Shown piece after piece: positions 3,169 to 19,780 of a DNA stretch of 64,000 bases (positions are counted from its first letter, which is position 1; every line of letters begins with the position of its first letter). The notes beneath the pieces are model-generated. The model saw only the letters and a program-made list of their open reading frames with translations, did no database searches and had not been told where the DNA came from. The position numbers and the translations under genes are program-made. Origin of the DNA: an uncultured Clostridia bacterium (GTDB taxonomy: Bacteria; Bacillota; Clostridia; Christensenellales; CAG-314); contig CANQPI010000001.1 of NCBI GenBank assembly GCA_947625725.1, positions 22,085-86,084 on the forward strand, written 5' to 3'.

Positions 3169-3903
3169 TTATTGAAGTTTGGATTTAACCGAAAACCCGA
3201 GCACAGCACGATACTCCTTTTCAACAAGAGAGTAGGCGTAGCCAGTCTCGCTATTGATATAGCAACTATAACTCCCGTAGTTTTTGAAAGGAGAACGCAA
3301 CCACCAACTGAAGCCAAGACTCCGTGCTCGTTGATTGTTAAAAAGTGCATATTGCTCCCCTTCTCCCGGGAACGAGTAGTAATTTCCTCCACAAACCTCT
3401 ATCTCGGATAGCGGGAAAAGTTTGTTGTAAGTGTCAACCAGAGTAGAATTTTGCCCGCTCGTTGCTGTTTTCTTTGCTGTAACCGCAGCATATTCGGAGA
3501 TTTCTTTAGGCAGCATTTTTTCGAACAACGGCAATCTATTGTGCAGTTCACTCGTTTCCCACTTGTTAGACGCCAAACCGAAGTTCCATCCCCCGTCAAT
3601 TCCTATAATGATAAATGTTGCGGGGCTCGTAGCACCGTTCTCGTCGATGTCGTGATTGAAATCTGCAAGAATTACTTTTAACTTCCCCTTAATACCAGCG
3701 CATGACTGGACAATAGCATAATCTCCAACCATAAAGCGCTCATCGGGATATTCTGATGTCGCTATGTATTCAAGCATTTCGCCAAGAGAACAGTCAACCT
3801 GCCTCGGGACGCGGCATTCAACGGATTGGACGCGCATAATACGACAATTCCCGCAGTGAGGCTTCGTTCCTAACAGTTCGCAGTAATTACAGTTTCCTTC
3901 CAT
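3169..3903 (-). CDS. hypothetical protein, DUF6273-like (WWLRSP) with N-terminal Cys cluster
   Basis: 244-aa ORF, TAGGAG RBS; CNYC..CGNC N-terminus; FSWWLRSP near C-terminus. Confidence 0.7.
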   Translation of the reverse strand: MEGNCNYCELLGTKPHCGNCRIMRVQSVECRVPRQVDCSLGEMLEYIATSEYPDERFMVGDYAIVQSCAGIKGKLKVILADFNHDIDENGATSPATFIIIGIDGGWNFGLASNKWETSELHNRLPLFEKMLPKEISEYAAVTAKKTATSGQNSTLVDTYNKLFPLSEIEVCGGNYYSFPGEGEQYALFNNQRARSLGFSWWLRSPFKNYGSYSCYINSETGYAYSLVEKEYRAVLGFSVKSKLQ

Positions 3904-3914
3904 TGTTATTACTC

Positions 3915-4364
3915 CTATCTAATATTCTTCCAATATTTAATTGCGTCCGTCGCCAATTTGTCGCAACGGTTATTATATTTGTTGTCTGCATGTCCTTTGA
4001 CTTTTACGAAACGCACCGAGTGCATTTCTATTAGCTCAATGAGCTGTGTCCATAAATCCTTATTTTGAACGGGCTTTTTACTGCTATTTTTCCAGTTAGA
4101 TTGTCGCCAAGCAGCAATCCAGCCACAATTAAATGCGTTGACCACATATGCCGAATCACTATATATGGTAACAATGCAATTATGTTTCAACGCGGAGAGT
4201 GCCTTTATGACCGCTGTTAGTTCCATTCTGTTGGAAGTGGTATTTGGTTCTGCTCCGTACAATTCTTTTTTGTGAGTGCCGCATATTAGAACAGCACCCC
4301 ATCCGCCAACGCCGGGGTTCCCGGAGCAGGCTCCATCGGTGTAAATGGCGACTTCTTGATGCAT
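3915..4364 (-). CDS. rnhA: ribonuclease HI
   Basis: Start moved to M23 (AAGGAG + 7 nt). IYTDGAC (Asp), NRMELTAV (Glu), YSDSAYV (Asp), GHADNKYNNRCDKLA (His/Asp): canonical RNase HI catalytic set. Confidence 0.9.
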   Translation of the reverse strand: MHQEVAIYTDGACSGNPGVGGWGAVLICGTHKKELYGAEPNTTSNRMELTAVIKALSALKHNCIVTIYSDSAYVVNAFNCGWIAAWRQSNWKNSSKKPVQNKDLWTQLIELIEMHSVRFVKVKGHADNKYNNRCDKLATDAIKYWKNIR

Positions 4365-4871
4365 TTTAATCTCCTTTACGCAATCCTCGCTATTAGCGCT
4401 TGGTCTCATTCTGTGAGCTCTGAATGGCATTTGAGTACGGGGAGTAGTTTCGCGGTGACGAAATGCTATTTGTAATACTCAATGTAGCCAAATTACTAAT
4501 AGTTTGGGTGTGGTGTTGAAGGCATTGGCGACTTTGGGGCTTTTTGGGGGCTACGTGCGGGAATGTCTACAGGTGATCAGTAAGTGCCCATAGCAGCGTC
4601 CGGTTGGCTCCCGCTGTCACTTCGCGTTACCTTGAATTTCATTCGAGGCTCTAATGGAAATTAGAAACAGCGATTGCGAAATTTATTATTGTTGTAAAAT
4701 TAGATGCTCACAAACGCGGAAGGATGTGTATGCGGAAAGCCGACGGCACGGAAGGCTTTCCGCATATGCATCCGACGCGTTTGATTGGGTGGCGTCAAAG
4801 CGCTAATCCTCGTGTAGGAAGATATGTTTAATGTAATCAAACACCTGATGATTCAGTATTCCCATCCAATT
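4365..4871 (-). other. ORF-free spacer between RT and RNase HI; candidate RT-associated non-coding RNA region
   Basis: 507 nt with no RBS-preceded ORF on the transcribed strand in an otherwise gene-dense arm; contains several hairpins. Confidence 0.4.
4714..4780 (-). other. 67-nt extended hairpin (12-bp perfect core ATGCGGAAAGCC/GGCTTTCCGCAT plus two flanking helices)
   Basis: ACGCG-tc-GGATG-cat-ATGCGGAAAGCC-12 nt loop-GGCTTTCCGCAT-aca-CATCC-ttc-CGCGT read directly; only a weak U-tract follows. Confidence 0.7.
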
Positions 4872-6299
4872 TTATATGTTACCTTTGTTTAACAAGCGTC
4901 TAATGTCTATTTGACACTTGGACGTATAGTGAGCAATGTACGAATCTATCGTATCAGGCTCAATAGAATGACAATAGGAAATCTCTCCCGCGAGAGCTTG
5001 TATATCTTTGCTGTCCCAAGTGCGTCCGTTTTTGTAGTCTGTACCCAGTGCGAACAACGCAGTTTTGAGATGCTTTTTACGCTTGTATCCAACCGTGATG
5101 TTATTATCTTGGTTGAGCATCAATCCGAGGTTCCAGTTGCGTCCAGCAGATGAACCATAGCGAATTTTCTTGTTGCTAAACGTGAAAGGAGCACCGGCTT
5201 TTTGCAGGATTTCAAGCAATCCACACAAAACTTTAGTGTGATGTTTATCTTCTTCAATCATTGCGTTTAGAATGTTCCTGAATTTAGGCGCGCTGTCCTT
5301 GGTGATTTGGATTGTTTCCATTGTAACTACGCTGCTAGGATGATTTTCTTTGAAACGCTTGAGCGATGCGGTCGCCGCCTCTTGCTTATCTCGATAAATT
5401 ACGGGCACGTTGTCTACCGAAATTTTGAATATGGGGTAAGGAACGTATCCATTTTCATCGGGATTTTTTACATACTTCAGGCTCTCGACAATCCTTGCGT
5501 GGGACATAATTCGTTGTATTGCGTAATTTTCAAAGTCGAATTGACTCGATAATTGGATGTCGTCTGCGAACCTTGTATAAATCAAGTGCGGCTGGTGATC
5601 TCTTGCAAACTTGGCAATGGAATGGTCGATCGGAATCATGAGAAGATTTGTAAGCATCGGACTTATCGGTGTTCCTTGTGGTAGTCCGCCGTTCAAGAAA
5701 CAAATCGACAAGGCTTTTTGCAACTGTTCGCGCCCCTCTTCTTTTCCCAGAACAAGGTTAAATGGATAGATGAGAGAAAGCATCTTGATTGCAAAATCCA
5801 TCGTTATGCTTCCAAAGAAATCGTGGAAATCAGTTTTGAGAAACCAACGCGAGTTGTTGGCTTGATGTCGCCGTAGCGCATCAATCGGGGAGCGGTTTGG
5901 GATATAAGCAAAAGCAGAAGTGTGGTAGTTTGCAAAGAACGAAGTCTTCAGCAAATATGCCAACGTTCGTTGTGCCTCCATGAGGTCGTCATTTGGCGCA
6001 TCGATTCGTCTCAAGCCGCCGGTCTTTTTGGGTATGGGGAACGAGTGGTAAAAAACTGATTTGTCCTCGGCATCAATAAATTTTTTGAAGTGGCTGTTGA
6101 ACCCCATGAGTTTTCGAATGAGTTCATTGACGTCGACCTTGTTAATTAAGCGTTGCGGAGTTATTTCTCGATATATGGTTCGCGTGTCTCTTGTATCTTT
6201 AGAGGACGTTTCAAAGCAATTTGAATTAACACCTTGTAGCAAATCGTCAAATGAAACTTGCACTTCGCGAGGTTGAATATAATATGTAATATACGGCAT
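4872..6299 (-). CDS. reverse transcriptase, retron/unknown-group (UG/DRT)-like
   Basis: IPKKTGGLRRIDAP, YIPNRSPIDALRRH, FLKTDFHDFFGSI, LPQGTPISPMLTNLL, YTRFADDIQLSS in canonical order; TAGGAG RBS. Confidence 0.9.
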   Translation of the reverse strand: MPYITYYIQPREVQVSFDDLLQGVNSNCFETSSKDTRDTRTIYREITPQRLINKVDVNELIRKLMGFNSHFKKFIDAEDKSVFYHSFPIPKKTGGLRRIDAPNDDLMEAQRTLAYLLKTSFFANYHTSAFAYIPNRSPIDALRRHQANNSRWFLKTDFHDFFGSITMDFAIKMLSLIYPFNLVLGKEEGREQLQKALSICFLNGGLPQGTPISPMLTNLLMIPIDHSIAKFARDHQPHLIYTRFADDIQLSSQFDFENYAIQRIMSHARIVESLKYVKNPDENGYVPYPIFKISVDNVPVIYRDKQEAATASLKRFKENHPSSVVTMETIQITKDSAPKFRNILNAMIEEDKHHTKVLCGLLEILQKAGAPFTFSNKKIRYGSSAGRNWNLGLMLNQDNNITVGYKRKKHLKTALFALGTDYKNGRTWDSKDIQALAGEISYCHSIEPDTIDSYIAHYTSKCQIDIRRLLNKGNI

Positions 6300-6594
6300 T
6301 TTGTATCTCCTAATAAACTACAGTATGGAAAACGGTTTCCCTCAGATCAGACTGCTCCGGAGGAAGCTGGGGTGGGGGCGACGTTCAGTCGTCCGATTTG
6401 CACGTTTTTGCTGAAATCCGCTACGAAAATTGGCTAATTGAATCAGTTTTTGTTGTTGGATAACATCAACGGGTCTTGGAGAGAGCTAAGGAAGACGCCG
6501 CGATGCAGAAGTCTCTTCTTCGGGTCGGATTGTCGCGTTCACAATGCGGTACTTTTAATGTCATTAAAAGCCTTATATAAGAATGCTTTATTAG
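6300..6594 (-). other. ORF-free spacer upstream of RT; candidate ncRNA/leader
   Basis: 295 nt without ORF between E1-like stop and RT start; hairpins at 6552-6570, about 6385-6400 and 6328-6341. Confidence 0.4.
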
Positions 6595-7269
6595 TTAAAA
6601 TGTGTCGATTGCGAATGTAAATGGATTAGCAACGGCTATATGAGTCAGTGCCCCTTGACGAACAAAGTTCATAAAGTTGGTTATTCCAAGCGCGCAAATA
6701 ACGCGTACGGTTGGAGCTACTCCCATTTCAACGTTGCAAGCGGTCACGGGAGTTGTTTCTTTTGCTTCCTCGTGGGTAAAGTCCATGGTACTGATAAATC
6801 CATCTATATCCCTTGGGTTGTTCCAGTCGGCAGCGTAGTGTTGGGCATCTTCTAGTCTCGTTCGGAAGTCAAACATCGCCTTGATCGCGCGATTGAATTT
6901 ATTTTCCGTGGCAATTTGGCGTCGCAAGTCGATGTTGTCTACGCAGAGAAAGACATAACCGTTAAGCCTCACTTTTGGCTCCCAGCCCTGAGAGCAAATT
7001 TCAACGTTGTTTTCGCAGTCGGGATTGATTGCGACTAACATCTTTTTGACTGCCTCGACTTTCGGGGCTCCAATGTCCGAGTTGACAAACATTTGGTTTG
7101 CGATATTATGTGCGACGACTCTATCAAAATCGTAGAGTGTGATTTTCGTAAGACCCAGTCTAACGAGCAGTTCGGCGATGGTAGAGCCTACGGAGCCGCA
7201 ACCAATAATGTGGCAGCGCTCCCTGATTTTTGTTGGGTTGAAGTAGTCTATAGATTTGACAAGATCCAT
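6595..7269 (-). CDS. E1-like (ThiF/MoeB/HesA family) adenylyltransferase, minimal form
   Basis: Start moved to M11 (AAGGAGGTGA upstream; 8-nt gap after JAB stop). IIGCGSVGSTIAELLVRLG Rossmann loop, YDFDRV, CVDNIDLRR, Cys in TACNVE. Confidence 0.8.
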   Translation of the reverse strand: MDLVKSIDYFNPTKIRERCHIIGCGSVGSTIAELLVRLGLTKITLYDFDRVVAHNIANQMFVNSDIGAPKVEAVKKMLVAINPDCENNVEICSQGWEPKVRLNGYVFLCVDNIDLRRQIATENKFNRAIKAMFDFRTRLEDAQHYAADWNNPRDIDGFISTMDFTHEEAKETTPVTACNVEMGVAPTVRVICALGITNFMNFVRQGALTHIAVANPFTFAIDTF

Positions 7270-7277
7270 TGGTAATC

Positions 7278-8138
7278 TCACCTCCTTGGGTATCTCCACT
7301 TATTATAGGGGCTATAATCCCATTCATCGGGTTCTTCGTCGTCGCGCGCAGGAGCATCCATATAGTTCATGCTTGTTTGGGGACTATACTGTTGTGCCTT
7401 TCCTTTCGTCTTCTTTGTGGAGTTCACTCCCAGCGGATAAAGTGGGCGTGGAGTAGGAACAGTCACTTTTTTGCCTGTTTCTTTAATGAAGTTCTCAAGG
7501 GTTTCGCCGTCCTCAAACTCTACGCTTATTGTTATTTCGTTAGTATTGTACAAGGCATTGTATTGAAGATCGTATATTAAACTTGTCACTTCGCCCCTCT
7601 TGTTGACTATCATGAATATGTAGAAAACGTCGTTGTTTTCGTTGGGGGTTTCGAAAAGGTTAAGTATCTTTTTCTGGTAGGCGGTGTCGACTGCCGAGGG
7701 GGTACATCCCATATTGACGTGGCTATGTCCGTGTAGGCGCACTTTATTGAAAATGTCGTCGGGCAAACTGTCGAGCCATTGGTTATACTCGCCTTGGTCA
7801 GATGTGACTGTCGCTTCCGATACCTCGTGGGGAAATGTAAGGATGTCCTCGACAAGAAATTCCCTCTCTGCCGTTCGCGTAACGAGCCCATGCCATTGCA
7901 CTTCTGTATTATAGGTGATTACTAAAGCGTACATTTTTGCATAAGCCTTCGGAGTGAACCGGAGAGTTGCTCGCCGATCATCAAAGCCGTTGTCCCCAAG
8001 AGAAAAAGAGAAGTTGAATTGAGGAATGTCTGTAAGTTGCAGACGCTCTTTTCTCTTTGATTCAAGAAAAGCCTTGAAGTCCCCAAGGAGTTTCTCCGCA
8101 AGTTCGGGAGATGTATCACGTAGAATTTTTTTAGCCAT
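7278..8138 (-). CDS. JAB/JAMM (MPN+) metalloisopeptidase
   Basis: HGHSHVNMGCTPSAVD = HxHx7Sx2D with upstream Glu (FPHEVSE); start overlaps upstream stop (TAATG). Confidence 0.8.
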   Translation of the reverse strand: MAKKILRDTSPELAEKLLGDFKAFLESKRKERLQLTDIPQFNFSFSLGDNGFDDRRATLRFTPKAYAKMYALVITYNTEVQWHGLVTRTAEREFLVEDILTFPHEVSEATVTSDQGEYNQWLDSLPDDIFNKVRLHGHSHVNMGCTPSAVDTAYQKKILNLFETPNENNDVFYIFMIVNKRGEVTSLIYDLQYNALYNTNEITISVEFEDGETLENFIKETGKKVTVPTPRPLYPLGVNSTKKTKGKAQQYSPQTSMNYMDAPARDDEEPDEWDYSPYNKWRYPRR

Positions 8139-9526
8139 TATTCGTTCTCCTCGTCTTGTGATCTTTCGATGTAATTGACGAACTCGTCGGGAGTCATGCG
8201 GCGACCGTCATCAAGAAGAATGCACTTGCGCGAAAAGGCAAAATCTTCGATGTCTTCGATAAAGCGTCCCATAACCGTTGTATCAGAGAAATTTATATTC
8301 TTGGTCGCGGCAACCGCTTGATCGATTGCACTCTGCCAATCTCCCGACATCAGATAGTTGTCTATATATGCTTTATTGCCGCCAAGACACCCATAGTAAC
8401 AGAGGTGCGGGTGAGGCATTGCTTCCGGATCGTTAATGCAATGTCTCTCGCATCTCACTGGGGTTAATGCTGACAACCCTTTGAGTGTAAATTTGCTTTC
8501 CACAACGAACACGCCCTTGTGTCGACGGAATATATAGTCGCATACTTTTTGAGCAAATGGGAAATCCTCGAAATAAGAGGCATTTTCGAGAACGTTGTCA
8601 ATAATATTTTCGTCATAATATTCCAATGTCTCTACAATGCCGAAGTCTATGGCACCCGAACCAGATGCCGTTACTTCGTTAATTCTCAGGTGTCTTCTCG
8701 ATTGGAAGAAATTCACAATTTCGTTTGCTTTGCTTTCCGGAGCTGACTTCCAACAGTATAACTCCTGCCTTATCTTGTCCAAGGTTTGCAAACAGCCGTC
8801 GATGCGTTCCTCATACTCCCTTACGTCGCTAATCAAAGACTCCTCGTTGCCTTCAAGGTTCTTAATGCGATTTTTGATGTAAGTTTTGTTGTAGTCCGTG
8901 AGCAGTTTAATTGTCGCAAGATTCGCGAAATCTATGCCTTGACATGCGTCGTTTATGATGCTTGCGATCAAGTCAAAATCAACCTTGCTCGAGGAACGAT
9001 GAACTGCTCCGAAACTTTTGTATATTTGAAGTTCCTCCCCTTCGGGATTGGTGGGATAAAACCACGGGAAAACACGGAACAGTGTTGAGCACAAAAGGCG
9101 TACCCAGCGCAATGTAATTTTACGAACAAAGATAATGCTCTTTTTAAGTTCGTTGTTGACGTATACTTTTGTTTCTTCCGCCGTTCCCAAATATTGGTTT
9201 ACTGGGTAGGGCTTTGAATCAAGTGCTACCCACCCCTCTGCAAAAATTGTAGGAAGAGCCTCGTCTTGACGTGCCGCCGTTCCTATAAATAAATCGCAAT
9301 CGTTTGTTTGGGATATGAATGGATTCCCATCGGCGCCGCGAACAACTTGTGCATGCGGTTTTATGAGTTGTAGCGTCGATATATCACCATGGTGGTGCTT
9401 GAGAACAATATACCTCAACACCGCTTCGAGCTCGACGCTACCGTCGAACTCGAGAGGTTGTTGGCTAAAATAAGCGTTTGCGCTGGGGCCTGTAAGTATA
9501 GTTGTTAACCTATCCATTGCAGACAC
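8138..9526 (-). CDS. E2-like (UBC-fold candidate) protein with long N-terminal extension
   Basis: C-terminal MPHPHLCYYGCLGGN resembles the E2 HPN-x-Cys active-site signature; sits between the Ubl and JAB genes; TAGGAG RBS. Confidence 0.55.
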   Translation of the reverse strand: MSAMDRLTTILTGPSANAYFSQQPLEFDGSVELEAVLRYIVLKHHHGDISTLQLIKPHAQVVRGADGNPFISQTNDCDLFIGTAARQDEALPTIFAEGWVALDSKPYPVNQYLGTAEETKVYVNNELKKSIIFVRKITLRWVRLLCSTLFRVFPWFYPTNPEGEELQIYKSFGAVHRSSSKVDFDLIASIINDACQGIDFANLATIKLLTDYNKTYIKNRIKNLEGNEESLISDVREYEERIDGCLQTLDKIRQELYCWKSAPESKANEIVNFFQSRRHLRINEVTASGSGAIDFGIVETLEYYDENIIDNVLENASYFEDFPFAQKVCDYIFRRHKGVFVVESKFTLKGLSALTPVRCERHCINDPEAMPHPHLCYYGCLGGNKAYIDNYLMSGDWQSAIDQAVAATKNINFSDTTVMGRFIEDIEDFAFSRKCILLDDGRRMTPDEFVNYIERSQDEENE

Positions 9527-9541
9527 TCCTATGTATTGATG

Positions 9542-9778
9542 TTATCTTGCTCCGTCTGCCTTCACGATGGCGCCAAGGGCAATTTCGTCGCCGGACTTGT
9601 AACCCAAGTTTTCGAGGGTGCTGTTGAGCTCCGTGTTAGTCAGGGTTTTGCCATTGATGTTGACGGAACAGCCGCCGACGTTGGCTCCAACCTGAGCGAA
9701 TATCTCCAAAGGAGTTGTGCTGGGCTGAACAGTGATTTCTCTACGAGTTGTATTAGTTTTTACGCTGACTTTAATCAT
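9542..9778 (-). CDS. ubiquitin-like (ThiS/MoaD beta-grasp-like) small protein
   Basis: 78 aa; ..VNINGKTL..LGYKSGDEIALGAIVKADGAR pattern typical of ThiS/MoaD-type Ubls; AAGGAG RBS; first gene of the coupled cassette. Confidence 0.6.
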   Translation of the reverse strand: MIKVSVKTNTTRREITVQPSTTPLEIFAQVGANVGGCSVNINGKTLTNTELNSTLENLGYKSGDEIALGAIVKADGAR

Positions 9779-9841
9779 GTTTGTTTCTCCTTGTTTATTA
9801 TTTTGTTTTAGAGGGGGCGCGGTTAAGCGCCCCGTTTGTGG

Positions 9842-10276
9842 TTAGCCGCGGCGAGCAGGTGTCTCGGTCACTACGCCCACAACGCTGATTTTGCTGACGA
9901 GGTCAGCCTTTGCGTCACGGATTGCTTTCGCAGCCCGGGGCACGCTTGTTTCGAGCGTCTTAACGTAGCCAATAACGCCGCCAAGTTTCTCAGCCACATA
10001 GTCCTTAGCCTTGTCGTCGCTAAGACCAGTTTCCAAGGTGCCTGTGAATGTAGCAAAGCCTTCTGTGCCGCGAGAAGTTCCGCCAAATACCATTCCGAAT
10101 CCGCTAACCGTGTCTTTGCCTTCTTCATAGGCAATACGGAATACGTCGCGCTCGATATCGCCTTCCTTGGTTGTGATTGCGAGCCCATTGGGATTGTACT
10201 TTTGCAGAAGCTTGATGTCCTCGACTTTAATCGCGGATGTCACCACAAAAGTGTTTGCAACGATTTGAATTTGCAT
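9842..10276 (-). CDS. hypothetical protein ending in ..TPARRG
   Basis: Start moved to M14 (AAGGAG + 8 nt); 144 aa; GC-rich hairpin (9814-9833) separates it from the Ubl gene. Confidence 0.7.
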   Translation of the reverse strand: MQIQIVANTFVVTSAIKVEDIKLLQKYNPNGLAITTKEGDIERDVFRIAYEEGKDTVSGFGMVFGGTSRGTEGFATFTGTLETGLSDDKAKDYVAEKLGGVIGYVKTLETSVPRAAKAIRDAKADLVSKISVVGVVTETPARRG

Positions 10277-10339
10277 AGTTTGTTTCTCCTTTTCATGTAT
10301 TTTTTTTATCATCACTCGAAAGAGTTTGATACAATAAAT

Positions 10340-10496
10340 ATGGAACGGAACGCCTCAATGTATAAGAAGAAAATAAAAACAAAAGAGGTAGTAGAAAGTA
10401 TCCGCGTTTCTCTACTGCGACAAAAAAGAAAGGTCGCTTTATGCTTAAAGAAAGAAGATGGTAGAGGCATCTTGACGAAAAGACGCTCCGTTCCAT
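10340..10496 (-). ncRNA. structured element bracketed by a 13-bp helix, directly 3' of the tRNA-like element
   Basis: AUGGAACGGAGCG (10496-10484) pairs with CGUUCCGUUCCAU (10352-10340). The single non-Watson-Crick pair is G-U only on the minus-strand RNA. Two internal hairpins. Confidence 0.4.
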
Positions 10497-10595
10497 TGGT
10501 GGAGAGTGGTGGAGTCAAACCACCGCGGTAGGACGTATGGCGCCAAGCCTACCAGGGAGTTCGCGTCCCCTGCTTAATCGCTTGCGTAACTCTCC
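10497..10595 (-). ncRNA. tRNA-like element (class-II-like, non-canonical), ends in ACCA
   Basis: 7-bp acceptor stem GGAGAGT/ACTCTCC + ACCA; T-arm-like GGTGG-TTTGACT-CCACC; anticodon-arm-like GGGGA-CGCGAAC-TCCCT; long extra arm. No proper D-arm; G33; C56 absent. Confidence 0.35.
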
Positions 10596-10609: not shown

Positions 10610-10948
10610 TTATTTTTCGTTTGGCTCTCGCTCAACGCATTCGCCATCAACAAAGTGGTAATCTCCCGAATAAGCGCAATCAGCGCAGTCATCGGTTTCG
10701 TCGCCGCCGAAGGGACAATCAAAGCCGAAGTCCTCTCTTAACCGTGCGCCACATTCCGGGCAGTAGTTAAGACCAAATTTTTCTTTCAGTCTTTCTTTCA
10801 CCCTCTCTGTTGCTTCTTCAATATTTTCCCCTTGCGCAAATGCAAGGAAATAACCACATACCGAGCATTTCGCTACGACTATTCCTTCGCCTGCTTCCGG
10901 TCTTGGTCTTATTATCGGCTCGTGCAATTCGTTTTCTCTCGTTTCCAT
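10610..10948 (-). CDS. hypothetical zinc-ribbon protein
   Basis: Start at M8 (GGAGG RBS); CSVCGY...YCPECG pairs. Confidence 0.7.
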   Translation of the reverse strand: METRENELHEPIIRPRPEAGEGIVVAKCSVCGYFLAFAQGENIEEATERVKERLKEKFGLNYCPECGARLREDFGFDCPFGGDETDDCADCAYSGDYHFVDGECVEREPNEK

Positions 10949-12263: not shown

Positions 12264-12992
12264 TTACCTTTCTACGAGAATCGAGTTGTCGCTTACTTTA
12301 TTGTAGATGAATGTGCGGTGATTCGCGCCGTCGATGTATTCCGTGTGTTCTTCGTCGTTAACGAGAGGATACATATTCCTTGCCCATAAAATAATCGCGT
12401 CCCGCAATTCTTCGTTATCTTCGTCGCTTGTATCAAACCCTTGCAGAGCGAGGAGCGGTGCAACCCTTCGGAAAAACACCTCGTCGTACCAATCATCGAA
12501 ATCATCGTACTCGTCTTTTAAGTGCGTGTCATAGGGACCATTCTCCACATCGCATTTCATGTCGTAAAAGACATCCAAAAGTGCGGTGCTACGGATTACT
12601 TCTTCGTCGTTTCCCTCTAAATAAGCGCAACATTCATTAACCCAACTTTTTACCCAAGATTCAAGCGAAACATAGCTCCCGTAGAGTTTCTTGATTCGCT
12701 CAACCATATCGGCTTGTCTTCTCGGGATTTTTCCCTCTGCCATAAAAGGTCCGTACTGGAGATAGAGTTCCCGCATCTCTTCCGATTTTATTTTGCCATA
12801 AGGAAGGCTTGCAATTCGAAGCCAGTATGCTACCGGATCAATTTGCACATTCACGATTTTAGCGTTTGATATTTCGGCGTCAGCACTAGATGCCGCGATA
12901 CAAACGCCACCCCTGCAGTCACTGTGACAAACCAAATTTTTGAAGTTGATATCGTCCGCAACCTCTGCGGAAATCATGATAAGTGTTTTCAT
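12264..12992 (-). CDS. hypothetical protein
   Basis: 242-aa ORF, GGAGGG RBS 5 nt upstream of ATG. Confidence 0.75.
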   Translation of the reverse strand: MKTLIMISAEVADDINFKNLVCHSDCRGGVCIAASSADAEISNAKIVNVQIDPVAYWLRIASLPYGKIKSEEMRELYLQYGPFMAEGKIPRRQADMVERIKKLYGSYVSLESWVKSWVNECCAYLEGNDEEVIRSTALLDVFYDMKCDVENGPYDTHLKDEYDDFDDWYDEVFFRRVAPLLALQGFDTSDEDNEELRDAIILWARNMYPLVNDEEHTEYIDGANHRTFIYNKVSDNSILVER

Positions 12993-13010
12993 CAACGCCC
13001 TCCGTTTTAT

Positions 13011-13073
13011 ATTTTAATAAAAGCCCCAGTTCCACCCACCATCAAATCGCTTGAATTGCGGATGGAAGTGGGG
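13011..13073 (-). terminator. intrinsic terminator candidate closing the 14.4->13.0 kb transcription unit
   Basis: 11-bp stem (CCCCACTTCCA / TGGAACTGGGG, one mismatch) followed by CTTTTATT on the minus strand. Confidence 0.6.
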
Positions 13074-13074
13074 C

Positions 13075-13646
13075 GAAATTTGCTGCGGCAACCAGAGATA
13101 TCACTAGTCGACATTACTCGGACTTCGCTTTCTCACTCGGAAACTTGATACGTAATTGCAAACTAATAATAGTTTTTTTGGCTTCCACTATGGCAGGAAC
13201 TCTCCCGTATTAGTTTCCTTGATTACGAACCAACAACTATCAAATTTATTGTCGCAATGGCACCACGCCGGTTTAATTAAAGTAGCGAAGCTATCGGGTT
13301 ATTACGTTGTAGCCCAAAATAATAATCCGTTCACATCTCGCAGTTCGGAGGAAAGAGCGGCTTGTCATCTGCCCAACAAGCGAGGCAGCCAAATGCATGG
13401 CTTAACGTCTTTGCTTCGTACGGTTTTTATGCAACCTTCCGTCAAATAGTTGGTGTGGTTAGCACCTGACTTTCAATCTGTTGCCTTTGGTGGGTTTGGT
13501 CGGAAATGCTCCGCCATCTTCGGTCGCCCGATGTTTTTCTGCTTAAACTATGAACCCATACAATATTGTCCCCGAGGCGTTGCTGCCCTTCTACCTTTCG
13601 GGGAGGCTGACACTCAGCTAATAGGCAGTTTTTTGCCGTCCTTTTA
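13075..13646 (-). ncRNA. 570-nt ORF-free tail of a strongly promoted transcript; candidate large non-coding RNA
   Basis: No RBS-preceded ORF on the transcribed strand; flanked by a terminator; plus-strand ORFs in the track lack RBSs and look non-coding. Confidence 0.35.
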
Positions 13647-13799
13647 TTACCTCTCTGACATAGCTAGCCTGACATCAGTCAGGGAGGCGACGAGCGCGGC
13701 AAGACACCGCGTCGGCTTCTCTCGCGACGAGACCGATATTATTGTGAAAATTGTCACCCCAAAGCGCGGGGCATTCGCGGGCTGTTCATCGAACTCCAT
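13647..13799 (-). CDS. possible 50-aa ORF
   Basis: ATG 9 nt after AGGAG; MEFDEQPANAPRFGV...; below the track length cutoff. Confidence 0.25.
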   Translation of the reverse strand: MEFDEQPANAPRFGVTIFTIISVSSREKPTRCLAALVASLTDVRLAMSER

Positions 13800-13884
13800 T
13801 TACCACAGCTCCTATTACTCTCAGGCAAGCTTCCCGACGATCCAAGCGTCTTGCTTCTCCTTGTTGCTTCGTGGCACCCATTTT

Positions 13885-14064
13885 TTACGCTTTTGATTTA
13901 CGTTTGCGACGAGCGCGGGGCATTCGCGGTACAATCCATTTTCTCCAATTGCAAGAAAATTTGCTGACGCGGTTTCCCTTGCCGTCGCGCATTGGCTTAT
14001 TCAGGCGGTCAATGCCTGCCGTCTGCATATTGTATCTGGCGATACTTCTTAAAAGTTTTCTCAT
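13885..14064 (-). CDS. possible 59-aa highly basic protein
   Basis: ATG 5 nt after AGGAG; MRKLLRSIARYNMQTAGIDRLNK...PRMPRARRKRKSKA; below the track length cutoff. Confidence 0.35.
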   Translation of the reverse strand: MRKLLRSIARYNMQTAGIDRLNKPMRDGKGNRVSKFSCNWRKWIVPRMPRARRKRKSKA

Positions 14065-14441
14065 AATAACTCCTATTATAGTTTCACAATCCTAACGCGA
14101 CAGAATGTTAATCCAGCGAAGGAAGGAGACGCATTCGAGGTGCTTCTGGCGTGTGAGGAGTTTGTTGGTTTAATGGTTGTTTAATGGTTTTAATCAACAA
14201 TAATTCTGAAAAGTGAATGGGTTTTTATCCTAAGAGAAAGGTTCGAGTATTTAAGAGATGGTCGCGAACGCTCATTCGAACCGCTCAAGGGGCTTAGGGT
14301 TCCGATGAAAGTGACCAGATGGTATCCCTCAGGCGGCTTCCCGCCTTCACTTCTCGATGCCCTGAACGTTGTCCAAGGTTCTACAAGGTAGAAATGCGAT
14401 TGTGAATTGCTTTACAGTCCCCAAACGTGTCGTGTAATTGT

Positions 14442-14470
14442 ATTATATGACACAGATGTGGAGTTGTCAA
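14442..14470 (-). promoter_or_regulatory. sigma-70-type consensus promoter (TTGACA-17-TATAAT) with A-rich upstream tract
   Basis: Minus strand: TTGACA at 14470-14465, exact 17-nt spacer, TATAAT at 14447-14442; AAAAAAACTTTCAAAAAAA just upstream. Confidence 0.7.
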
Positions 14471-14490
14471 GCGTTTTTTTGAAAGTTTTT

Positions 14491-14871
14491 TTAAGAATTT
14501 TCTTTGGCTTTGCGAGCTTTCATTTTCGCGTACCAACGGTGTTGATATTCGGCACGCTTACGCCTTTGCTCCGCCAAGATTTCCTCGGCGGTTGGCGCAG
14601 CCCCCGAAGGAGCGGGGACAAGACGTCTGACGGGTGCCGTCAAAGATGCCGCATTGACGACCTCAATGGATGCGATCTCAGCCGCGAGGGCGGCTTTGCT
14701 TGCAACCAAGGTGAGATATGTTGCATCTTCCTTGTCGCAGGGAATGGTGGCGCCGGTGCAGTTGAGCTTGATGTCGACGTGCCCAACGCGGTCGATTTTT
14801 TTGATAAGTTGCGTTACGTGCTTGAGCGCCTTAGCCTTACGCCCAATAATTTCAGCTGTTCTGTTATCCAT
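14491..14871 (-). CDS. hypothetical protein
   Basis: Start at M9 (AAGGAG + 8 nt). Confidence 0.7.
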   Translation of the reverse strand: MDNRTAEIIGRKAKALKHVTQLIKKIDRVGHVDIKLNCTGATIPCDKEDATYLTLVASKAALAAEIASIEVVNAASLTAPVRRLVPAPSGAAPTAEEILAEQRRKRAEYQHRWYAKMKARKAKENS

Positions 14872-14896
14872 AGTTACTCTCCTTGTTTTTTGCATT

Positions 14897-14920
14897 AAAA
14901 AAGCACCCCGTCAAGGGTAC
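14897..14920 (-). terminator. intrinsic terminator candidate
   Basis: Minus strand GTACCC-TTGACG-GGGTGC followed by TTTTTT. Confidence 0.45.
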
Positions 14921-14985
14921 TTGGTTGTCAAATGTGTTACTTGTGAGGCGGTGTGTAACGCGATGGACACAGAATGATTGCCTCA

Positions 14986-15384
14986 TTATTTGTCTGTGTA
15001 AATGTGGTTCTCCTCTACTTTTTGGTAAGGGTTGTCAATAAAGAACGAGATTAAAAACGACCCATCCTCTAGTCCAGTACCGTTTATGTTAATCGCTTTG
15101 CATTGTGATAATGTAGAAATGAAACTTTTCATGTTATTCTTTTCATCTCCAATTATCAGGTCGTTGGCGAACCGCAGCGCTATCTCAACAAATTCTTCGC
15201 CTTCGCGGACAACGCTATATTCAATAGCGCCCTCATTTTTATCTGCAAGCGTTTGACAGTAATCGAGAACTTGTATCACAACTGACGCTTTTTCTGGGTC
15301 TACAATATAGTTCCCTTCTCTACGTTTGGCGAGATGCTCTAAATACGCCTCGCCTAATAGTTCGTTGAATTCTTCTTCGGTCAT
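14986..15384 (-). CDS. hypothetical protein
   Basis: Start at M16 (AGGAGG + 5 nt). Confidence 0.7.
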   Translation of the reverse strand: MTEEEFNELLGEAYLEHLAKRREGNYIVDPEKASVVIQVLDYCQTLADKNEGAIEYSVVREGEEFVEIALRFANDLIIGDEKNNMKSFISTLSQCKAININGTGLEDGSFLISFFIDNPYQKVEENHIYTDK

Positions 15385-15683
15385 ATGTCCTCCTGACGCA
15401 CAGAGGACAATCGATAGCCCCCTGCGCAAATATAATATTAAACTGCGCAGCGGCTATCAGCCACTCAAATAAGCAAACAACCCGTTAAAAAGGAGCGGGT
15501 GGTGCATATCGCACCACCCCAGTGGAAGCAACTCGTAAAAACGAGTACACAACCAAATGCGCCAAGCCAGCGGCGCAACGCTACGCCCTCAGCCAGATGG
15601 GCGTTACGCATTATAAATATATCACTCCGTTTTGGAAAAGTCAATCAAAAAAACATTATTCCAAGACAGAGGCTTGGGGACTA

Positions 15684-16436
15684 TTATTTTTTCACCCTTC
15701 TGAAGCCGTCAATTCCATATTTGCCGTTTGTAAGCAGGCGATATGCGACATCAACTAGGATGCGAAGCAAGTAGGTGTCATTCGACACGCGAACCGTCAA
15801 GCGCGCCTTGTTGCTCTTTTTACCATATAGGTCATCGAGATACGCGACGTCGTGGGTGTTGCATCTAGTCAAAGCACAACCCTCGGGCAGTATGTCGTCA
15901 AGTATGCCCTGAAGCAGTTTGACTACTTTGGTATTGCTATCGGGCGTCCCGCCCATTTCGATTTTCTGTGCTGCTTCGCGCAAGTAGTATGTTGTTGCAA
16001 TATCCTTCGCGGGTATGCCCAACGATTTAGCGGCACGCAAGCATAGCAATTGGTTAAGTTTGCTTACGGAATGCGCCCATTCCGTATCGATTTTTGCCCT
16101 CTTGCAAAATGCAAGCAGGTTGATTTGACGCTCTTTGTCGACCAATTCGACCGAAATGACCGCATTGGCGTTTGTCTTGTCGTGGGATTCGTGATGCCCA
16201 AATGTCTTGTATGCGTATGCCTTGATAACATCAGGCACGGCATTTTCGGTGCCTATGAACTTGTCATAAAACGCATTGGCAGCCATCTCGCCATACTGCT
16301 TCTCTAAGGCAACAAGGTTGTCCATAGATGTACTGTATGCCGCGCTGTCGACTGGTTTTTTGCCAAGTATAGCGTTGACCTCTTTGACAGCATCACGCAA
16401 TTTCGCCTCGACCGTTTCCATTGTGATTTGTTCCAT
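15684..16436 (-). CDS. hypothetical protein
   Basis: Start at M11 (AAGGAG + 9 nt); 250 aa. Confidence 0.75.
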   Translation of the reverse strand: MEQITMETVEAKLRDAVKEVNAILGKKPVDSAAYSTSMDNLVALEKQYGEMAANAFYDKFIGTENAVPDVIKAYAYKTFGHHESHDKTNANAVISVELVDKERQINLLAFCKRAKIDTEWAHSVSKLNQLLCLRAAKSLGIPAKDIATTYYLREAAQKIEMGGTPDSNTKVVKLLQGILDDILPEGCALTRCNTHDVAYLDDLYGKKSNKARLTVRVSNDTYLLRILVDVAYRLLTNGKYGIDGFRRVKK

Positions 16437-16461
16437 AATAAAACACTCCTTGAATGTATTA

Positions 16462-16542
16462 GGCAATCAGTTGGCTGCTATGCCATCCACGCCCGCCGCT
16501 GGGAGGCTTGCCTGTGGGCGCGAGGCTTGCATATAGCAAGCC
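16462..16542 (-). repeat. two-hairpin leader motif, copy 1
   Basis: GGCTTGC-tatat-GCAAGCC then CGCCC-[acaGGCAAGCCTCCCAGCGGC]-GGGCG, about 25 nt upstream of the RBS of gene 15684-16436. Confidence 0.6.
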
Positions 16543-16556
16543 CAAAGGAGGAAAAA

Positions 16557-16655
16557 ATGAAAAGGCTATGCCCAAGTGGCACAGTATTGACCGTTACGCA
16601 ATATGGTCACTTCATCACCAAACAAATACCATTGCTTGGCGGTAGAGAATTTTGA
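16557..16655 (+). CDS. possible 32-aa ORF antisense to 16566-16712
   Basis: AAAGGAGG 5 nt upstream of ATG; MKRLCPSGTVLTVTQYGHFITKQIPLLGGREF. Confidence 0.2.
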   Translation: MKRLCPSGTVLTVTQYGHFITKQIPLLGGREF

Positions 16656-16712
16656 TGACTTTTTGCCCGTACATTTATTGATGAACAAATACGTCGCTCT
16701 TTGTTTTAACAT
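16566..16712 (-). CDS. possible 48-aa protein
   Basis: Start at M19 (AAGGGG RBS), preceded by motif copy 2 just as gene 15684-16436 is preceded by copy 1. Confidence 0.35.
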   Translation of the reverse strand: MLKQRATYLFINKCTGKKSSKFSTAKQWYLFGDEVTILRNGQYCATWA

Positions 16713-16733
16713 AATCCGATCCCCTTGTTGTAA

Positions 16734-16825
16734 GGCAATCAGTTGACTATAACGCCATCCACCCACGCCACAGGGAGGCTTGCCATTGTGGGCAAGAGCC
16801 GCATATCATAAGCGACACGCGGCTC
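16734..16825 (-). repeat. two-hairpin leader motif, copy 2
   Basis: GAGCCGC-16 nt-GCGGCTC then GCCCAC-[aatGGCAAGCCTCCCTGTGGC]-GTGGGT, then ..TGGATGGC..CAACTGATTGCCT shared with copy 1. Confidence 0.6.
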
Positions 16826-17265
16826 CCAATATACCCGCATTGATGAAATGCGGAAGGAATTGTTTGATTATGTGTTGTTTGAAGTCTATACATATACATT
16901 ATCTAAAACATCAAAATGTACGCAATGCCCCTTGGGCAAGTGCGTAGTTCCCCTGCTGGCAGATTTTGATAACCGCCACGCCATAGCATTGCTTGAATAC
17001 TATGTGTATAACGGCTAAAAGGGTAGATGTTACGCAATGTACTTCTAAGACCGGCAATGTCCGCAAGCCGCGTTTAGGCTATCGCTACCTGTTGCCGTTT
17101 TCACTAACCGACACGCCGCAAGTCTACACCTATGCGGCTGAACCGTCGCCTTATTGCGTTTAAGGTTACGCTATGGTAATTCTATCGCCAACCATAGTTG
17201 GCTATAGCAACTTGCCGAATAGGTATCGTGCTATTAAAATAGTCGAACTTCTGACCTATTCGTTG

Positions 17266-17329
17266 CCCGCCCTACGCCACTGGGAGGCGTTGCTACGCAG
17301 GGCATAAGTCACCGCCGCACTATGCGGCG
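17266..17329 (-). repeat. two-hairpin motif, copy 3 (more divergent)
   Basis: CGCCGC-atagt-GCGGCG then GCCCTGCG-[tagCAACGCCTCCCAGTGG]-CGTAGGGC. Confidence 0.5.
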
Positions 17330-17344
17330 ATGACGCTCGTATGG

Positions 17345-17494
17345 TTACAAAGTTTCGTTGTATGTGCGCTCGAAGTCATCACGCAAGGCTATGCCTTCGG
17401 CATCATCGGGATTGATTGCAAGCAATGCCCGAATGGCACGCCGTGTCATCTCCTTGGTATCCTGCCGCGCCCTAATCTGTTGGGCAATGGTCAT
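17345..17494 (-). CDS. possible 49-aa protein
   Basis: AGGAGG 7 nt upstream of ATG; MTIAQQIRARQDTKEMTRRAIRALLAINPDDAEGIALRDDFERTYNETL; below the track cutoff. Confidence 0.45.
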   Translation of the reverse strand: MTIAQQIRARQDTKEMTRRAIRALLAINPDDAEGIALRDDFERTYNETL

Positions 17495-17528
17495 TCGTTA
17501 TCCTCCTGGAATGTTGGTCAATCGTCAC

Positions 17529-17599
17529 GCCGTTCGGTTGCCGTTGGACGGTTGCCACTATAAGGGACGAGCCGTCAACCCCTTTAGGGGTTAGGTTGC
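17529..17599. repeat. 71-bp dispersed direct repeat, copy a
   Basis: Identical to 17668-17738; contains GGTTGCC x2, CCGTTGGACGG, GACGAGCCGTC and the AACCCCTTTAGGGGTT palindrome. Confidence 0.9.
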
Positions 17600-17667
17600 G
17601 GCACCCCCCCCACACACGCGAGGGGTGTCGGCACAGCCTGCCCACATAGGCGGGCGCCGTCGTGGTT

Positions 17668-17738
17668 GCCGTTCGGTTGCCGTTGGACGGTTGCCACTAT
17701 AAGGGACGAGCCGTCAACCCCTTTAGGGGTTAGGTTGC
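17668..17738. repeat. 71-bp dispersed direct repeat, copy b
   Basis: 71/71 identical to 17529-17599 by direct comparison. Confidence 0.9.
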
Positions 17739-17879
17739 TCGCGGTGGTGGGTGTTCTGGTCGCCCCCTTCCCCTGCACCCTATCCCCCACCGACGTACGC
17801 ACACGCTCGCGGTGGTGGGTGTTCTGGTCGCCCCCTTCCCCTGCACCCTATCCCCCACCGACGTACGCACACGCTCGCG
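17738..17879. repeat. 68-bp tandem repeat, 2.1 copies; C-rich on plus strand, G4-type motif on minus strand
   Basis: Units 17738-17805 and 17806-17873 identical. Minus strand reads GGGGGATAGGGTGCAGGGGAAGGGGG in each unit. Confidence 0.9.
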
Positions 17880-17896
17880 TGTGTATATGTGTGCGT

Positions 17897-17932
17897 AAAA
17901 AAAATCCCGCAGGGATTTTGCACCCTGCGGGA
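17897..17932 (-). terminator. strong intrinsic terminator after the HTH gene
   Basis: Minus strand TCCCGCAGGG-tgcaaaat-CCCTGCGGGA followed by T8, 17 nt after the stop of 17949-18809. Confidence 0.8.
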
Positions 17933-17948
17933 CTGCGTTTCAACCCCT

Positions 17949-18809
17949 TTAGGGGTTGATGCGTGGCAAGTTCGTTTTGTCGGTTCCACCGAGATTTTCA
18001 ATCTCGGTGCGTATCCAAGTGCGTACCTCGCTTGCCATCGCTGATACGCGTTGCTTGCTTATAGCAAGCAATTTGGCGGTTTCAGCCGTTGGCTTTTTGA
18101 GTACTACGTACTCAAAGCACTTCCAGCGTTTGGCGGTAGCGTAGGGGTGCTTGCGTTTGACTTCGTCAAACGCGGCGACGAGCGCGTTGCCCTGCTTTGG
18201 CGTGGAGAAGTATTTCTTTGCCCCTAAAGGGGGCAAAGAGCATTCGTCCTGTTCGGGTTCAACCCCTTCGGGGTTGAGCGAGCAAATTTGCTGAGTGGCG
18301 AACCTAAGGTCACGGTCGCAAACCTCTTCCTTCGGAAGAGTTTTGCGGTCACGGCTCTTGTAGTCGTCACGGCTGTCGATTGCTTTAGCAATCGCCTCGA
18401 ACCCTCGCGTGATTGCGTGCGCGACGTTGCCGTCCCTGACAGCCTCGCACACCGCGAGGACGAAGTCCTCGCGCCATTCTTGCACCTCATTCGTAAGTTC
18501 TACGAACTTACGGGCACTGTCCACGAGGTCGTAGGGCAGGTATGCGTTGCGTGCGAGCGTTGCGTGCTTGCTTGCGACGGCGGCGGCATAGTGCAGGAAG
18601 TCGAGATGCCCGAAGTAACCTACCTCTACGAGGTAGGTTAGGTCGTCGATTGGGTAGCACTCAAGACTAAAAGTCTTGGCGAGTTCAACGAGGCGGCTGA
18701 GTTCGGCTTGCAGGTGGCTCTCACGGACTTCGTCCGTGAGGCTGTCGTCTGCGAGGGTTGCAATGACTTCGTCATTGGCGATTGCGTTTGTTTGTTGGCT
18801 GTGTTTCAT
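17949..18809 (-). CDS. HTH protein with sigma-70 region-4-like C-terminus
   Basis: Start at M31 (AAAGGAG + 5 nt). C-terminal FEYVVLKKPTAETAKLLAISKQRVSAMASEVRTWIR resembles sigma region 4 / LuxR-type HTH. GC-rich codon usage unlike neighbours. Confidence 0.6.
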   Translation of the reverse strand: MKHSQQTNAIANDEVIATLADDSLTDEVRESHLQAELSRLVELAKTFSLECYPIDDLTYLVEVGYFGHLDFLHYAAAVASKHATLARNAYLPYDLVDSARKFVELTNEVQEWREDFVLAVCEAVRDGNVAHAITRGFEAIAKAIDSRDDYKSRDRKTLPKEEVCDRDLRFATQQICSLNPEGVEPEQDECSLPPLGAKKYFSTPKQGNALVAAFDEVKRKHPYATAKRWKCFEYVVLKKPTAETAKLLAISKQRVSAMASEVRTWIRTEIENLGGTDKTNLPRINP

Positions 18810-18908
18810 TTTTGCTCCTTTGCCCCTACGGGGCAACCAACCGTCCGTGGCTTGCGTACCCCTTTGGGGTAGCGGTTGGCTCGGTGGGCTGGCTCCCACC
18901 TTGCCACC

Positions 18909-18917
18909 ATTGTACCA
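18909..18917 (-). promoter_or_regulatory. possible extended -10 (TGGTACAAT) for the HTH gene
   Basis: TGnTAcAAT on minus strand about 100 nt upstream of the ATG; three small hairpins in the leader. Confidence 0.3.
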
Positions 18918-19003
18918 CGCCGACGGCGGAATGGCGCAACGGATTTGCAGAGCAAATCCCGTGACGGGCGCGATAACTCACTTCGCGAGTGCATACGCCT
19001 AGG

Positions 19004-19080
19004 CACGCTAATATCCCACTTCGCGGGCGGGCGGGCGCTTGCACGCTAATAACTAACTCTCGCGCGGGCGCGGGCGGGCG
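19004..19080. repeat. 38-bp imperfect direct repeat x2 with GGGCGGGCGGGCG tracts
   Basis: CACGCTAAT at 19004 and 19042, each followed by a CGCGGGCGGGCGGGCG-like run. Confidence 0.6.
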
Positions 19081-19354
19081 TCTATCCTTGTCGCGCGCAC
19101 ACGTGCGGGCGCGCACTTAAGGTTTATTATTTCTTGGATATTTTGTTTGGGAAGTAACGTGGACGTGGGTTGCCTGTCGCTCTTGGGGGTAGGGGGTTGA
19201 GGGTATTATAAAATACTTAGTGGAAATCAAAGATACAAGAGGGTTTGCCGTCGTGGGGTTGGCGGTGTGGTAGTTGCTTGTTTGCTCTCTGGCGGTGGCA
19301 CTTTGCCACCGAACTCGCGGGGAAATAGTATATATAAAAATAAATAATTCGGGG

Positions 19355-19750: not shown

Positions 19751-19780
19751 CTATATATTAGTATATTAGAGTACCCAAGT

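Follow-up and report, generated by a model that had tools for sequence, protein, structure and literature searches.

A putative tRNA-derived RNA element with an encoded ACCA end, upstream of a ubiquitin-like protein/reverse transcriptase cassette in a tailed phage

The window analyzed here, a 64,000-nucleotide (nt) stretch of DNA assigned to an uncultured Clostridia bacterium (assembly GCA_947625725.1, contig CANQPI010000001.1, positions 22,085 to 86,084), is that of a tailed phage and encodes a terminase, a portal and tail proteins. On its minus strand, between a gene for a 112-residue Zn-ribbon protein (10610..10948) and an operon that encodes a ubiquitin-like protein (Ubl) and a reverse transcriptase (RT), lies a 99-nt tRNA-like element (10497..10595) with the layout of a type II (long variable arm) cloverleaf and the 3′ end ACCA. 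The ACCA is directly abutted by a 157-nt helix-closed domain (10340..10496) and this, in turn, by the proximal leader of the operon (10277..10339), which has a small hairpin, an A-rich run and the ribosome-binding site AAAGGAGA. The stop codon of the Zn-ribbon gene lies 14 nt before the first nucleotide of the element (G1), close enough that the two would be co-transcribed; the C-terminus of the protein is homologous to sequences in two related phage loci (L005 3918-4016 and L008 3230-3340). When the intergenic region was compared by blastn with all related loci, only 10342-10284 was similar, matching the relatives' operon leaders, and the 3′ part of the leader (~10277-10335) is conserved in related phages (alignment A5, 12 loci). 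Because nothing else in the region resembles those leaders, the 256-nt RNA module made up of the element and the domain is a lineage-specific insert between the Zn-ribbon gene and the cassette's own leader.

Read along the minus strand, the element opens with the 5′ acceptor strand GGAGAGT (10595-10589), followed by TA and a 16-nt D region (10586-10571); U8, A9 and a D-arm remnant were placed within 10571..10588 by alignment to real tRNAs, with the positions assigned by reading. Next come an anticodon-arm-like hairpin, GGGGA/CGCGAAC/UCCCU (10554..10570), with G33, CGA at positions 34-36 and A37, and an oversized variable arm of 27 nt (10527..10553), in which GGTAGG and CCTACC form a 6-bp stem around a 15-nt loop by both sequence and fold. 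After GC, the final segment (10497..10524) comprises the T arm GGUGG/UUUGACU/CCACC (10524-10508), the 3′ acceptor strand ACTCTCC (10507-10501) and the encoded ACCA (10500-10497). A sequence-only reading of this DNA had proposed the same layout, and re-reading the minus strand from 10595 to 10497 confirmed the sequence and pairings as written, including the G at position 33. All 23 of the 23 stem pairs are standard, with zero mismatches and a single G-U, located in the anticodon-like stem and possible on the minus strand only. An all-Watson-Crick 7-bp acceptor with an abutting 5-bp/7-nt hairpin and NCCA occurs just once on the two strands of the window, at the element, and this acceptor/T-arm/NCCA architecture arose in 0 of 100 dinucleotide shuffles; the fold is far beyond chance and non-random. 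The RNAfold z-score was -2.65 for the 99-nt element and -3.9 for a 271-nt unit. On the acceptor side, the T arm has the expected stem (5 bp) and loop (7 nt), and T54, U55, R57, A58, G53:C61, a discriminator and CCA are all present, with U56 as the sole deviation; the anticodon loop fits a tRNA in its 7-nt length and A37, though not at position 33, which is G instead of U. Inside the variable-arm loop is a perfect 8-nt palindrome, UGGCGCCA (10545-10538, minus strand), which could support loop-loop dimerization or, in the DNA, serve as a protein site.

To relate the element to known tRNAs, we built a covariance model from the element alone (R1) and used it for a reciprocal search over ~45 related loci plus reference tRNAs. 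R1 recovered genuine tRNAs for Tyr, Ser, Leu and Gln at 25-39 bits overall, including phage a15 tRNA-Tyr (39.1 bits), Escherichia coli tRNA-Ser(CGA) (38.1 bits), phage T6 tRNA-Tyr (37.1 bits) and, from related phages, the tRNA-Ser(UGA) of L033 (33.4 bits), the tRNA-Leu of L008 (31.2 bits) and the tRNA-Gln of L024 (29.8 bits). Non-tRNA sequence scored at most ~13 bits, except for the element itself and a tRNA-like RNA at L030 236-365 (28.1 bits). Under R1 the D region of the element, UA-CGC-AAGCGAUUAA-GC-A, aligns with that of a genuine tRNA-Gln, UA-GCC-AAGCGGUUAA-GGC-A. Its D stem consists of only 2 bp (G11:C24 and C12:G23), with position 25 missing, and its D loop AAGCGAUUAA carries A14, G15, G18, A19 and A21. 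Set against a D arm with a 3-4-bp stem and G18G19, the element thus falls short on both counts, having a 2-bp stem and G18 followed by A19; the earlier statement that there is no credible D-arm was nonetheless too strong, since a remnant aligns to canonical D arms and U8, A14, G15, G18 and A21 are kept. The full set of canonical positions retained, by reading, is U8, A14, G15, G18, A21, C48, G53:C61, U54, U55 and A58, and the partners of the tertiary contacts U8/A14, G15/C48, G18/U55 and A19/U56 are in place. The elbow pair of tRNA is normally G19:C56 (PMC4810234). Position 56 of the element is U, so that the T loop does lack C56 as had been described, yet A19 is complementary to it, and the 19:56 pair can, as judged by base identity, still form as A19:U56. 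The true lesions are G33, the D stem reduced to 2 bp and the 27-nt variable arm. Because the reciprocal search retrieves real tRNAs and the canonical tertiary positions are present, we consider the element to be tRNA-derived.

The overall plan is shared with bacterial and phage type II tRNAs, which have a 7-bp acceptor, a 5-bp/7-nt anticodon arm, a long variable arm, a 5-bp/7-nt T arm, A/G73 and CCA; the element differs from them in G33, the 2-bp D stem without position 25, A19:U56, and the 27-nt variable arm with its 15-nt loop. Two individual tRNAs stand out in the comparison. Over the 30-nt stretch 10524-10495 (T arm, 3′ strand, ACCA and two bases 3′ of it), 29 of 30 positions match phage a15 tRNA-Tyr, whose T loop is also UUUGACU, and 28 of 30 match T6 tRNA-Tyr. 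With E. coli tRNA-Ser(CGA) the element shares the acceptor GGAGAG, the CGA anticodon, A37 and the variable-stem ends GUAG..CUAC, and its anticodon arm aligns to that of the E. coli tRNA (loop CUCGAAA). Because tRNA sequence is strongly constrained, either likeness could be convergence, and we claim for the element only a type II (long-arm) tRNA ancestry.

The likeness to tRNA-Ser(CGA) bears on a reading in which the element is a functional, non-canonical charged tRNA, for instance a Ser(CGA)-like body with A73 that is charged by seryl- or leucyl-tRNA synthetase (SerRS or LeuRS), serves in translation and is perhaps resistant to host anticodon nucleases. In keeping with this, CCA is encoded, and odd tRNAs occur in related phages, such as a variant with a 9-nt anticodon loop (L042/L046). 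The anticodon plays no part in recognition by SerRS and LeuRS, and the choice between A73 and G73 switches Leu/Ser identity (PMC9976931). However, LeuRS needs G18G19 and A15:U48 (PMC9976931), neither of which the element has; G33 takes the place of the almost universal U33; and the 2-bp D stem and 27-nt variable arm further depart from a working tRNA. The element also differs from tRNA-Ser in having A73 on a Ser-like body, and it scores below the thresholds of ARAGORN and of the Rfam tRNA family (RF00005). Codon usage is uninformative as an argument for a UCG decoder: UCG, at 18% of Ser codons, is not unusually frequent in the phage. We regard a charged tRNA as improbable.

Directly 3′ of the ACCA, RNAfold closes the 157-nt domain with a helix of 17 bp (10496-10480 with 10356-10340). 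The helix had been noted before as one of 13 bp; it exists, with a greater length and three G-U pairs, all compatible with the minus strand only. Likewise, the two hairpins described within it proved to be three (10473-10455, 10437-10417 and 10416-10390), followed by a U-rich tract (~10389-10357). The argument from G-U asymmetry for a minus-strand RNA holds for the anticodon-like stem and for all three of these closing-helix pairs, and the domain folds better on the minus strand (RNAfold z = -4.66) than on the plus strand (-3.12). Its inverted repeat is unique in the window; a miniature inverted-repeat transposable element or other repeat was ruled out, no second copy being found there. The domain gave no Rfam match and no blastn similarity in any related locus; it is real but lineage-specific. 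A retron msr-msd reading of the domain was also ruled out, as it is absent from all homologous operons and another conserved, covarying non-coding RNA (ncRNA) is found at the RT.

The direct fusion of ACCA and helix could mean that the element is a 5′ processing handle: a functional 157-nt small RNA would be freed either by RNase P plus trimming at the 3′ end or by RNase III, with the 17-bp helix as its target. Such a product fits the minus-strand fold of the domain, which is much more stable than that of shuffled sequences, and the G-U pairs of its helix, which are compatible with that strand alone. On the other hand, the domain is without a homologue, an Rfam family or a predicted target, its interior is U-rich and weakly structured, and its helix, 17 bp with three G-U pairs among them, would be a marginal substrate for RNase III; we give this explanation little weight.

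What occupies the same intergenic slot in related phages was examined in ~45 homologous cassettes, which we gathered from metagenomes and IMG/VR and mapped. The element and the 157-nt domain are absent from all of them by blastn, R1 and mapping, so that conservation upstream of homologous Ubl cassettes, proposed earlier as a check, was found in none of the ~45. In L008, a tRNA-Leu(UAA) ends 62 nt before the first operon gene, with a transfer-messenger RNA (tmRNA) further upstream; L024 has two tRNA genes there, for Gln and Thr, and the distance from the end of tRNA-Thr to the first operon gene is 52 nt. In the L025/L032-L050 clade, tRNA-Ser and tRNA-Lys lie upstream, and the operon itself contains a tRNA-Leu(UAA) (L025 2315-2398; L032-L050 ~2476-2560), which separates the Ubl gene from that of the 460-residue protein (p459) and lies 27 nt before the start of the latter. 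Eleven lineages have no tRNA in the slot (L005, L006, L009, L013, L015, L016, L018, L021, L029, L030 and L031). The intergenic slot is therefore variable, holding ordinary tRNA genes or nothing in related phages.

Our leading, though tentative, explanation is that the element is a lineage-specific RNA gene derived from a type II (Ser/Tyr-like) tRNA and situated in this variable tRNA slot, where it would act as a non-decoding mimic or handle. It would be transcribed from the minus strand together with the upstream genes, as the 14-nt spacing suggests, and excised by host tRNA-maturation enzymes, with an RNase P cut between 10596 and 10595 and 3′ trimming that halts at the encoded CCA. Maturation by RNase P is probable in view of the 12-bp acceptor/T coaxial stack, the U at -1, A73 and CCA, for which we drew on the elbow pair and the RNase P recognition principles in PMC4810234, and a role as a processing signal is plausible. 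The RNA would then maintain an L-shaped fold through its intact stems and the U8:A14, G15:C48 and G18:U55 partners, with A19:U56 replacing G19:C56. As the parts used in standard decoding are damaged (G33, the 2-bp D stem and the 27-nt variable arm), the element is most likely a tRNA mimic or processing handle, and decoding appears unlikely. The helix-closed, U-rich 157-nt domain of the same insert would probably end or insulate the transcript ahead of the operon's conserved leader.

Several observations weigh against this explanation. ARAGORN finds no tRNA gene in the whole window and does not call the element at its default, -ps or -ps80 settings, and Rfam RF00005 gives no match at the gathering score, nor, with the search confined to 701 nt or 111 nt, at E<=10. 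Of the relaxed tRNA searches that had been suggested, a local ARAGORN run called the element only at -ps70 (70% of thresholds); the call forces a wrong anticodon arm onto it and stands, over 600 nt, among three junk calls. Patterns, R1 and blastn identified no homologue in the searched sets and hence no covariation as evidence of selection on the fold; within the element, the four assemblies of this phage differ at a single base, and the A19:U56 argument comes from a single sequence. That one base is position 10497, A in three assemblies and C in one, so that the sole polymorphism seen falls on the last base of CCA. A further weak point is the terminator-like hairpin, which has 8 bp, mostly A-U, and was not called by a terminator scanner. 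With regard to the polymorphism, the independent assembly L003 differs from the window over 6,691 nt at only this base (10497 = L003 1004, ACCA to ACCC), and the ACCC may be an error, coverage being ~3.5x.

A rival explanation is a decaying pseudo-tRNA, a former type II tRNA gene of the phage slot which has lost its function and is now role-free intergenic DNA. Failure of all tRNA detectors, lesions at critical sites (G33, the lost position 25, U56 and the enlarged variable loop), presence in one phage lineage only, a sole polymorphism that strikes the CCA end and a slot that is evolutionarily fluid among relatives all agree with it. Against it, every stem pair is still standard, the change at 19:56 is two-sided and keeps a Watson-Crick pair, and U8, A14, G15, C48, G18, U54, U55, A58 and G53:C61 are all retained; moreover, 256 nt of dead sequence are rarely kept in compact phage genomes. 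Simple decay is disfavored because of the intact stems and the two-sided change, and we judge it unlikely; because there is only one sequence, the pseudogene nevertheless stays a serious rival. The option of a decayed tRNA in the sequence-only reading survives as to tRNA ancestry, for which R1 and the tertiary positions argue, and decay itself is kept only as a rival.

The origin of the sequence was pursued further in 185,579 bacterial and archaeal species genomes. Two scans with the exact patterns GGTGGTTYGACTCCACCACTCTCCA and RGGGACNCGAANTCCCTGGTAG returned 0 matches each, the T arm and 3′ strand of the element thus having no match in these genomes. Because no species genome contains either half of the element as an exact pattern, we rejected a recent copy of a host tRNA, a phage attachment site (attP) and a recombination scar; clear homology to a degraded bacterial tRNA gene, a possibility raised previously, was not borne out by these matches. 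No integrase was noted near the element, although no systematic integrase search was made. In IMG/VR, three exact or degenerate DNA patterns of the element found no homologue; one of them gave five chance matches, 0 of 5 being tRNA-like by R1.

tRNA-like modules that are processed by RNase P at the ends of other RNAs include the mascRNA of MALAT1, the C4 RNA of phages P1 and P7, and the T4 stable RNAs that are co-transcribed with tRNAs. Like these, the element would be an acceptor/T minihelix with an elbow in a longer transcript, abutting a structured RNA; unlike theirs, its processing is a prediction, and the RNA that adjoins it is without a known function or homologue. Mimicry of tRNA of the mascRNA type is mentioned in PMC4810234. 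The tRNA-like domain of tmRNA resembles the element in its acceptor/T-arm minihelix with ACCA and its reduced D region, and a true tmRNA gene occurs in this region of the related phage L008. In contrast to tmRNA, the element has anticodon and variable arms and is without G3:U70 (3:70 is A:U), a tag open reading frame (ORF) and pseudoknots. A tmRNA was rejected, as ARAGORN made no call at default and a nonsensical permuted call when relaxed, and Rfam gave only a 9.8-bit fragment; permuted tmRNA and tRNA-Sec readings, which came only from relaxed-threshold or wrong-strand fragments, were rejected as well.

Closer at hand, tRNA-like RNAs of 117-130 nt occur in four related loci (L005 5023-5261, L006 5047-5289, L015 1797-2404 and L030 236-365). 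They have canonical acceptor, D and T arms, and 51-58 nt of hairpins with repeated ACAGCAAUUUU replace the anticodon arm; Rfam calls most of them tRNA and ARAGORN none, and the L005 RNA has a sub-threshold YrlA match (33.9 bits). The L005 and L006 RNAs adjoin a DUF2828/DUF7788 (TROVE-like) gene. Together with YrlA-type mimics, these RNAs are like the element in being phage-encoded, tRNA-shaped, silent in ARAGORN and upstream of the same cassette, and differ in that they keep the acceptor, D and T arms and swap the anticodon arm, whereas the element keeps the anticodon arm and loses the D stem. A YrlA or Y RNA-like mimic was rejected for the element, which gives no RF02553 match at E<=10, and tblastn with the DUF2828/TROVE-like protein of L005 matched nothing in the 64-kb window of the 190-kb genome.

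The cassette downstream (3169-10276, minus strand) comprises, in order, genes for g144, Ubl, p459, p286 and a ThiF-type E1, a non-coding gap, a retron-type RT, a second gap, RNase H and DUF6273. Its map places g144, the 144-residue first protein, at 10276-9842; p459, of 462 residues (459 from the first ATG), at 9526-8138; and p286, of 286 residues with a JAMM motif, at 8138-7278. The Ubl has the conserved C-terminus KADG|AR. A first protein of 130-144 residues, a 460-residue protein and a short ThiF E1 are conserved in the ~45 loci, L005-L050. As a whole the cassette matches no PADLOC system, and the literature offered nothing specific on a retron/Ubl/ThiF phage cassette. A word search with g144 returned no homologue but itself. 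The identity of p459 among relatives falls from 100% to 37%; its AlphaFold2 model is confident (predicted local distance difference test, pLDDT, 88.7), with no fold match in the Protein Data Bank, and its sequence has no match to solved structures. The only other signal in p286 is an insignificant match to Elp5 (E = 0.02). A link between the cassette and tRNA biochemistry was rejected, having no support from the p459 searches or the p286 signals.

The RT has what is likely, from its covariation, to be its own msr/msd-like ncRNA. The gap between the ThiF and RT genes (window 6300-6594, minus strand, with equivalents in L005-L024) opens with the strongly conserved AACTAATAAAG, found in all cassettes, and continues with two hairpins, in which 11 of 15 pairs have double-sided compensatory changes (12 loci); the gap is variable in its 3′ part. 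Between the RT and RNase H genes lie 440 non-coding nt (4431-4871, minus strand) with a long, near-perfect hairpin (~4773-4722, GGATGCATATGCGGAAAGCC...GGCTTTCCGCATACACATCC), and relatives have gaps of 450-750 nt at the same position.

The sequence-only reading had also raised the possibility that the element is an RNA partner of the downstream machinery. As such it might serve the RT as a primer or a CCA-ended initiation site, or the Ubl system as a substrate or handle. Its position at the operon head, its encoded ACCA and the recurrence of tRNA genes near or inside homologous operons in several lineages are in line with this, and a CCA-ended tRNA-like structure in an RT-encoding genome recalls the Mauriceville retroplasmid and retroviral primers. 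In contrast to those systems, a retron-type RT with an ncRNA of its own upstream is present here, and the element has no primer-binding complement: we found none to its 3′ 12-16 nt elsewhere in the window at up to 3 mismatches. Unlike the Mauriceville structure, it is neither at a transcript 3′ end by the RT nor conserved with the RT. A retroviral-type primer and a Mauriceville-type CCA site were both rejected, there being no such complement, no location at the 3′ end of an RT template, and the element lying ~4.2 kb upstream of the RT gene. Priming or templating of the RT by the element is not supported, because the RT has its own covarying ncRNA and the window holds no complement. Beyond the RT, the element is missing from all homologous cassettes, the relatives' tRNAs are ordinary and differ in identity (Leu, Thr, Gln) and position, and a conserved leader that belongs to the operon itself lies downstream of the element. 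That the element is a component of the Ubl/RT cassette is not supported, their link being positional only, and a partnership of any kind is very improbable.

Other RNAs and RNA-related genes recur in this phage family. In the tRNA-Leu slot, L042 525-615 and L046 2467-2557 are a variant with the 9-nt anticodon loop CCUAUAGGA and no encoded CCA, which ARAGORN mislabels tRNA-Tyr(AUA). The tmRNA of L008 (6307-6615; Rfam 62 bits; tag ANRNRAAA*) lies in a 2-kb gene-free stretch upstream of the cassette and is followed by 500 nt of unassigned non-coding sequence. RAGATH-16 motifs above the Rfam gathering score were found upstream of the cassette region at L008 1-71 and L021 200-272. In the window itself, 17232-17303 (minus strand) is a sub-threshold match to the Faecalibacterium prausnitzii hepatitis delta virus (HDV)-like ribozyme (RF02682, 29.3 bits against a gathering score of 44, E = 0.028), located in an ORF-poor stretch (~12990-20340). 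Downstream of the cassette, a P-loop gene of the polynucleotide-kinase/KTI12/AAA_33 type is conserved (window 142-1200, minus strand; L005 15684-16580), followed in L006 by a metallophosphatase. The P-loop gene, together with the tRNAs, tmRNA and tRNA mimics, points to RNA or tRNA repair as an investment of this phage family.

The element adds to a known class, the tRNA-like genes of phages. More notable than the element are the conserved ncRNA at the RT and the assortment of tRNA mimics in this phage family; for the cassette of Ubl, JAMM, E1 and retron-type RT, the RNA partner is to be sought in the conserved ThiF-RT gap and not at the element. As a speculation to which we attach a low probability, the element could be a tRNA-shaped RNA kept with a deliberately disabled anticodon loop, its L-fold and CCA preserved, U33 lost and the variable arm enlarged, so as to serve as a decoy or sponge against host immunity that targets tRNAs or as a handle by which RNase P frees the 157-nt RNA, and would then be one of a wider, undescribed repertoire of mimics in this gut-phage family, among them the tRNA-like RNAs of 120-130 nt with replaced anticodon arms and the variant with a 9-nt anticodon loop. 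Should the predicted RNA and its fold exist, standard tRNA finders overlook tRNA-derived RNAs in phage genomes. On the same condition, a single intergenic slot would be used by the phage family for the exchange of tRNAs and tRNA mimics, and such a slot would bear on how phages respond to host attacks on tRNA.

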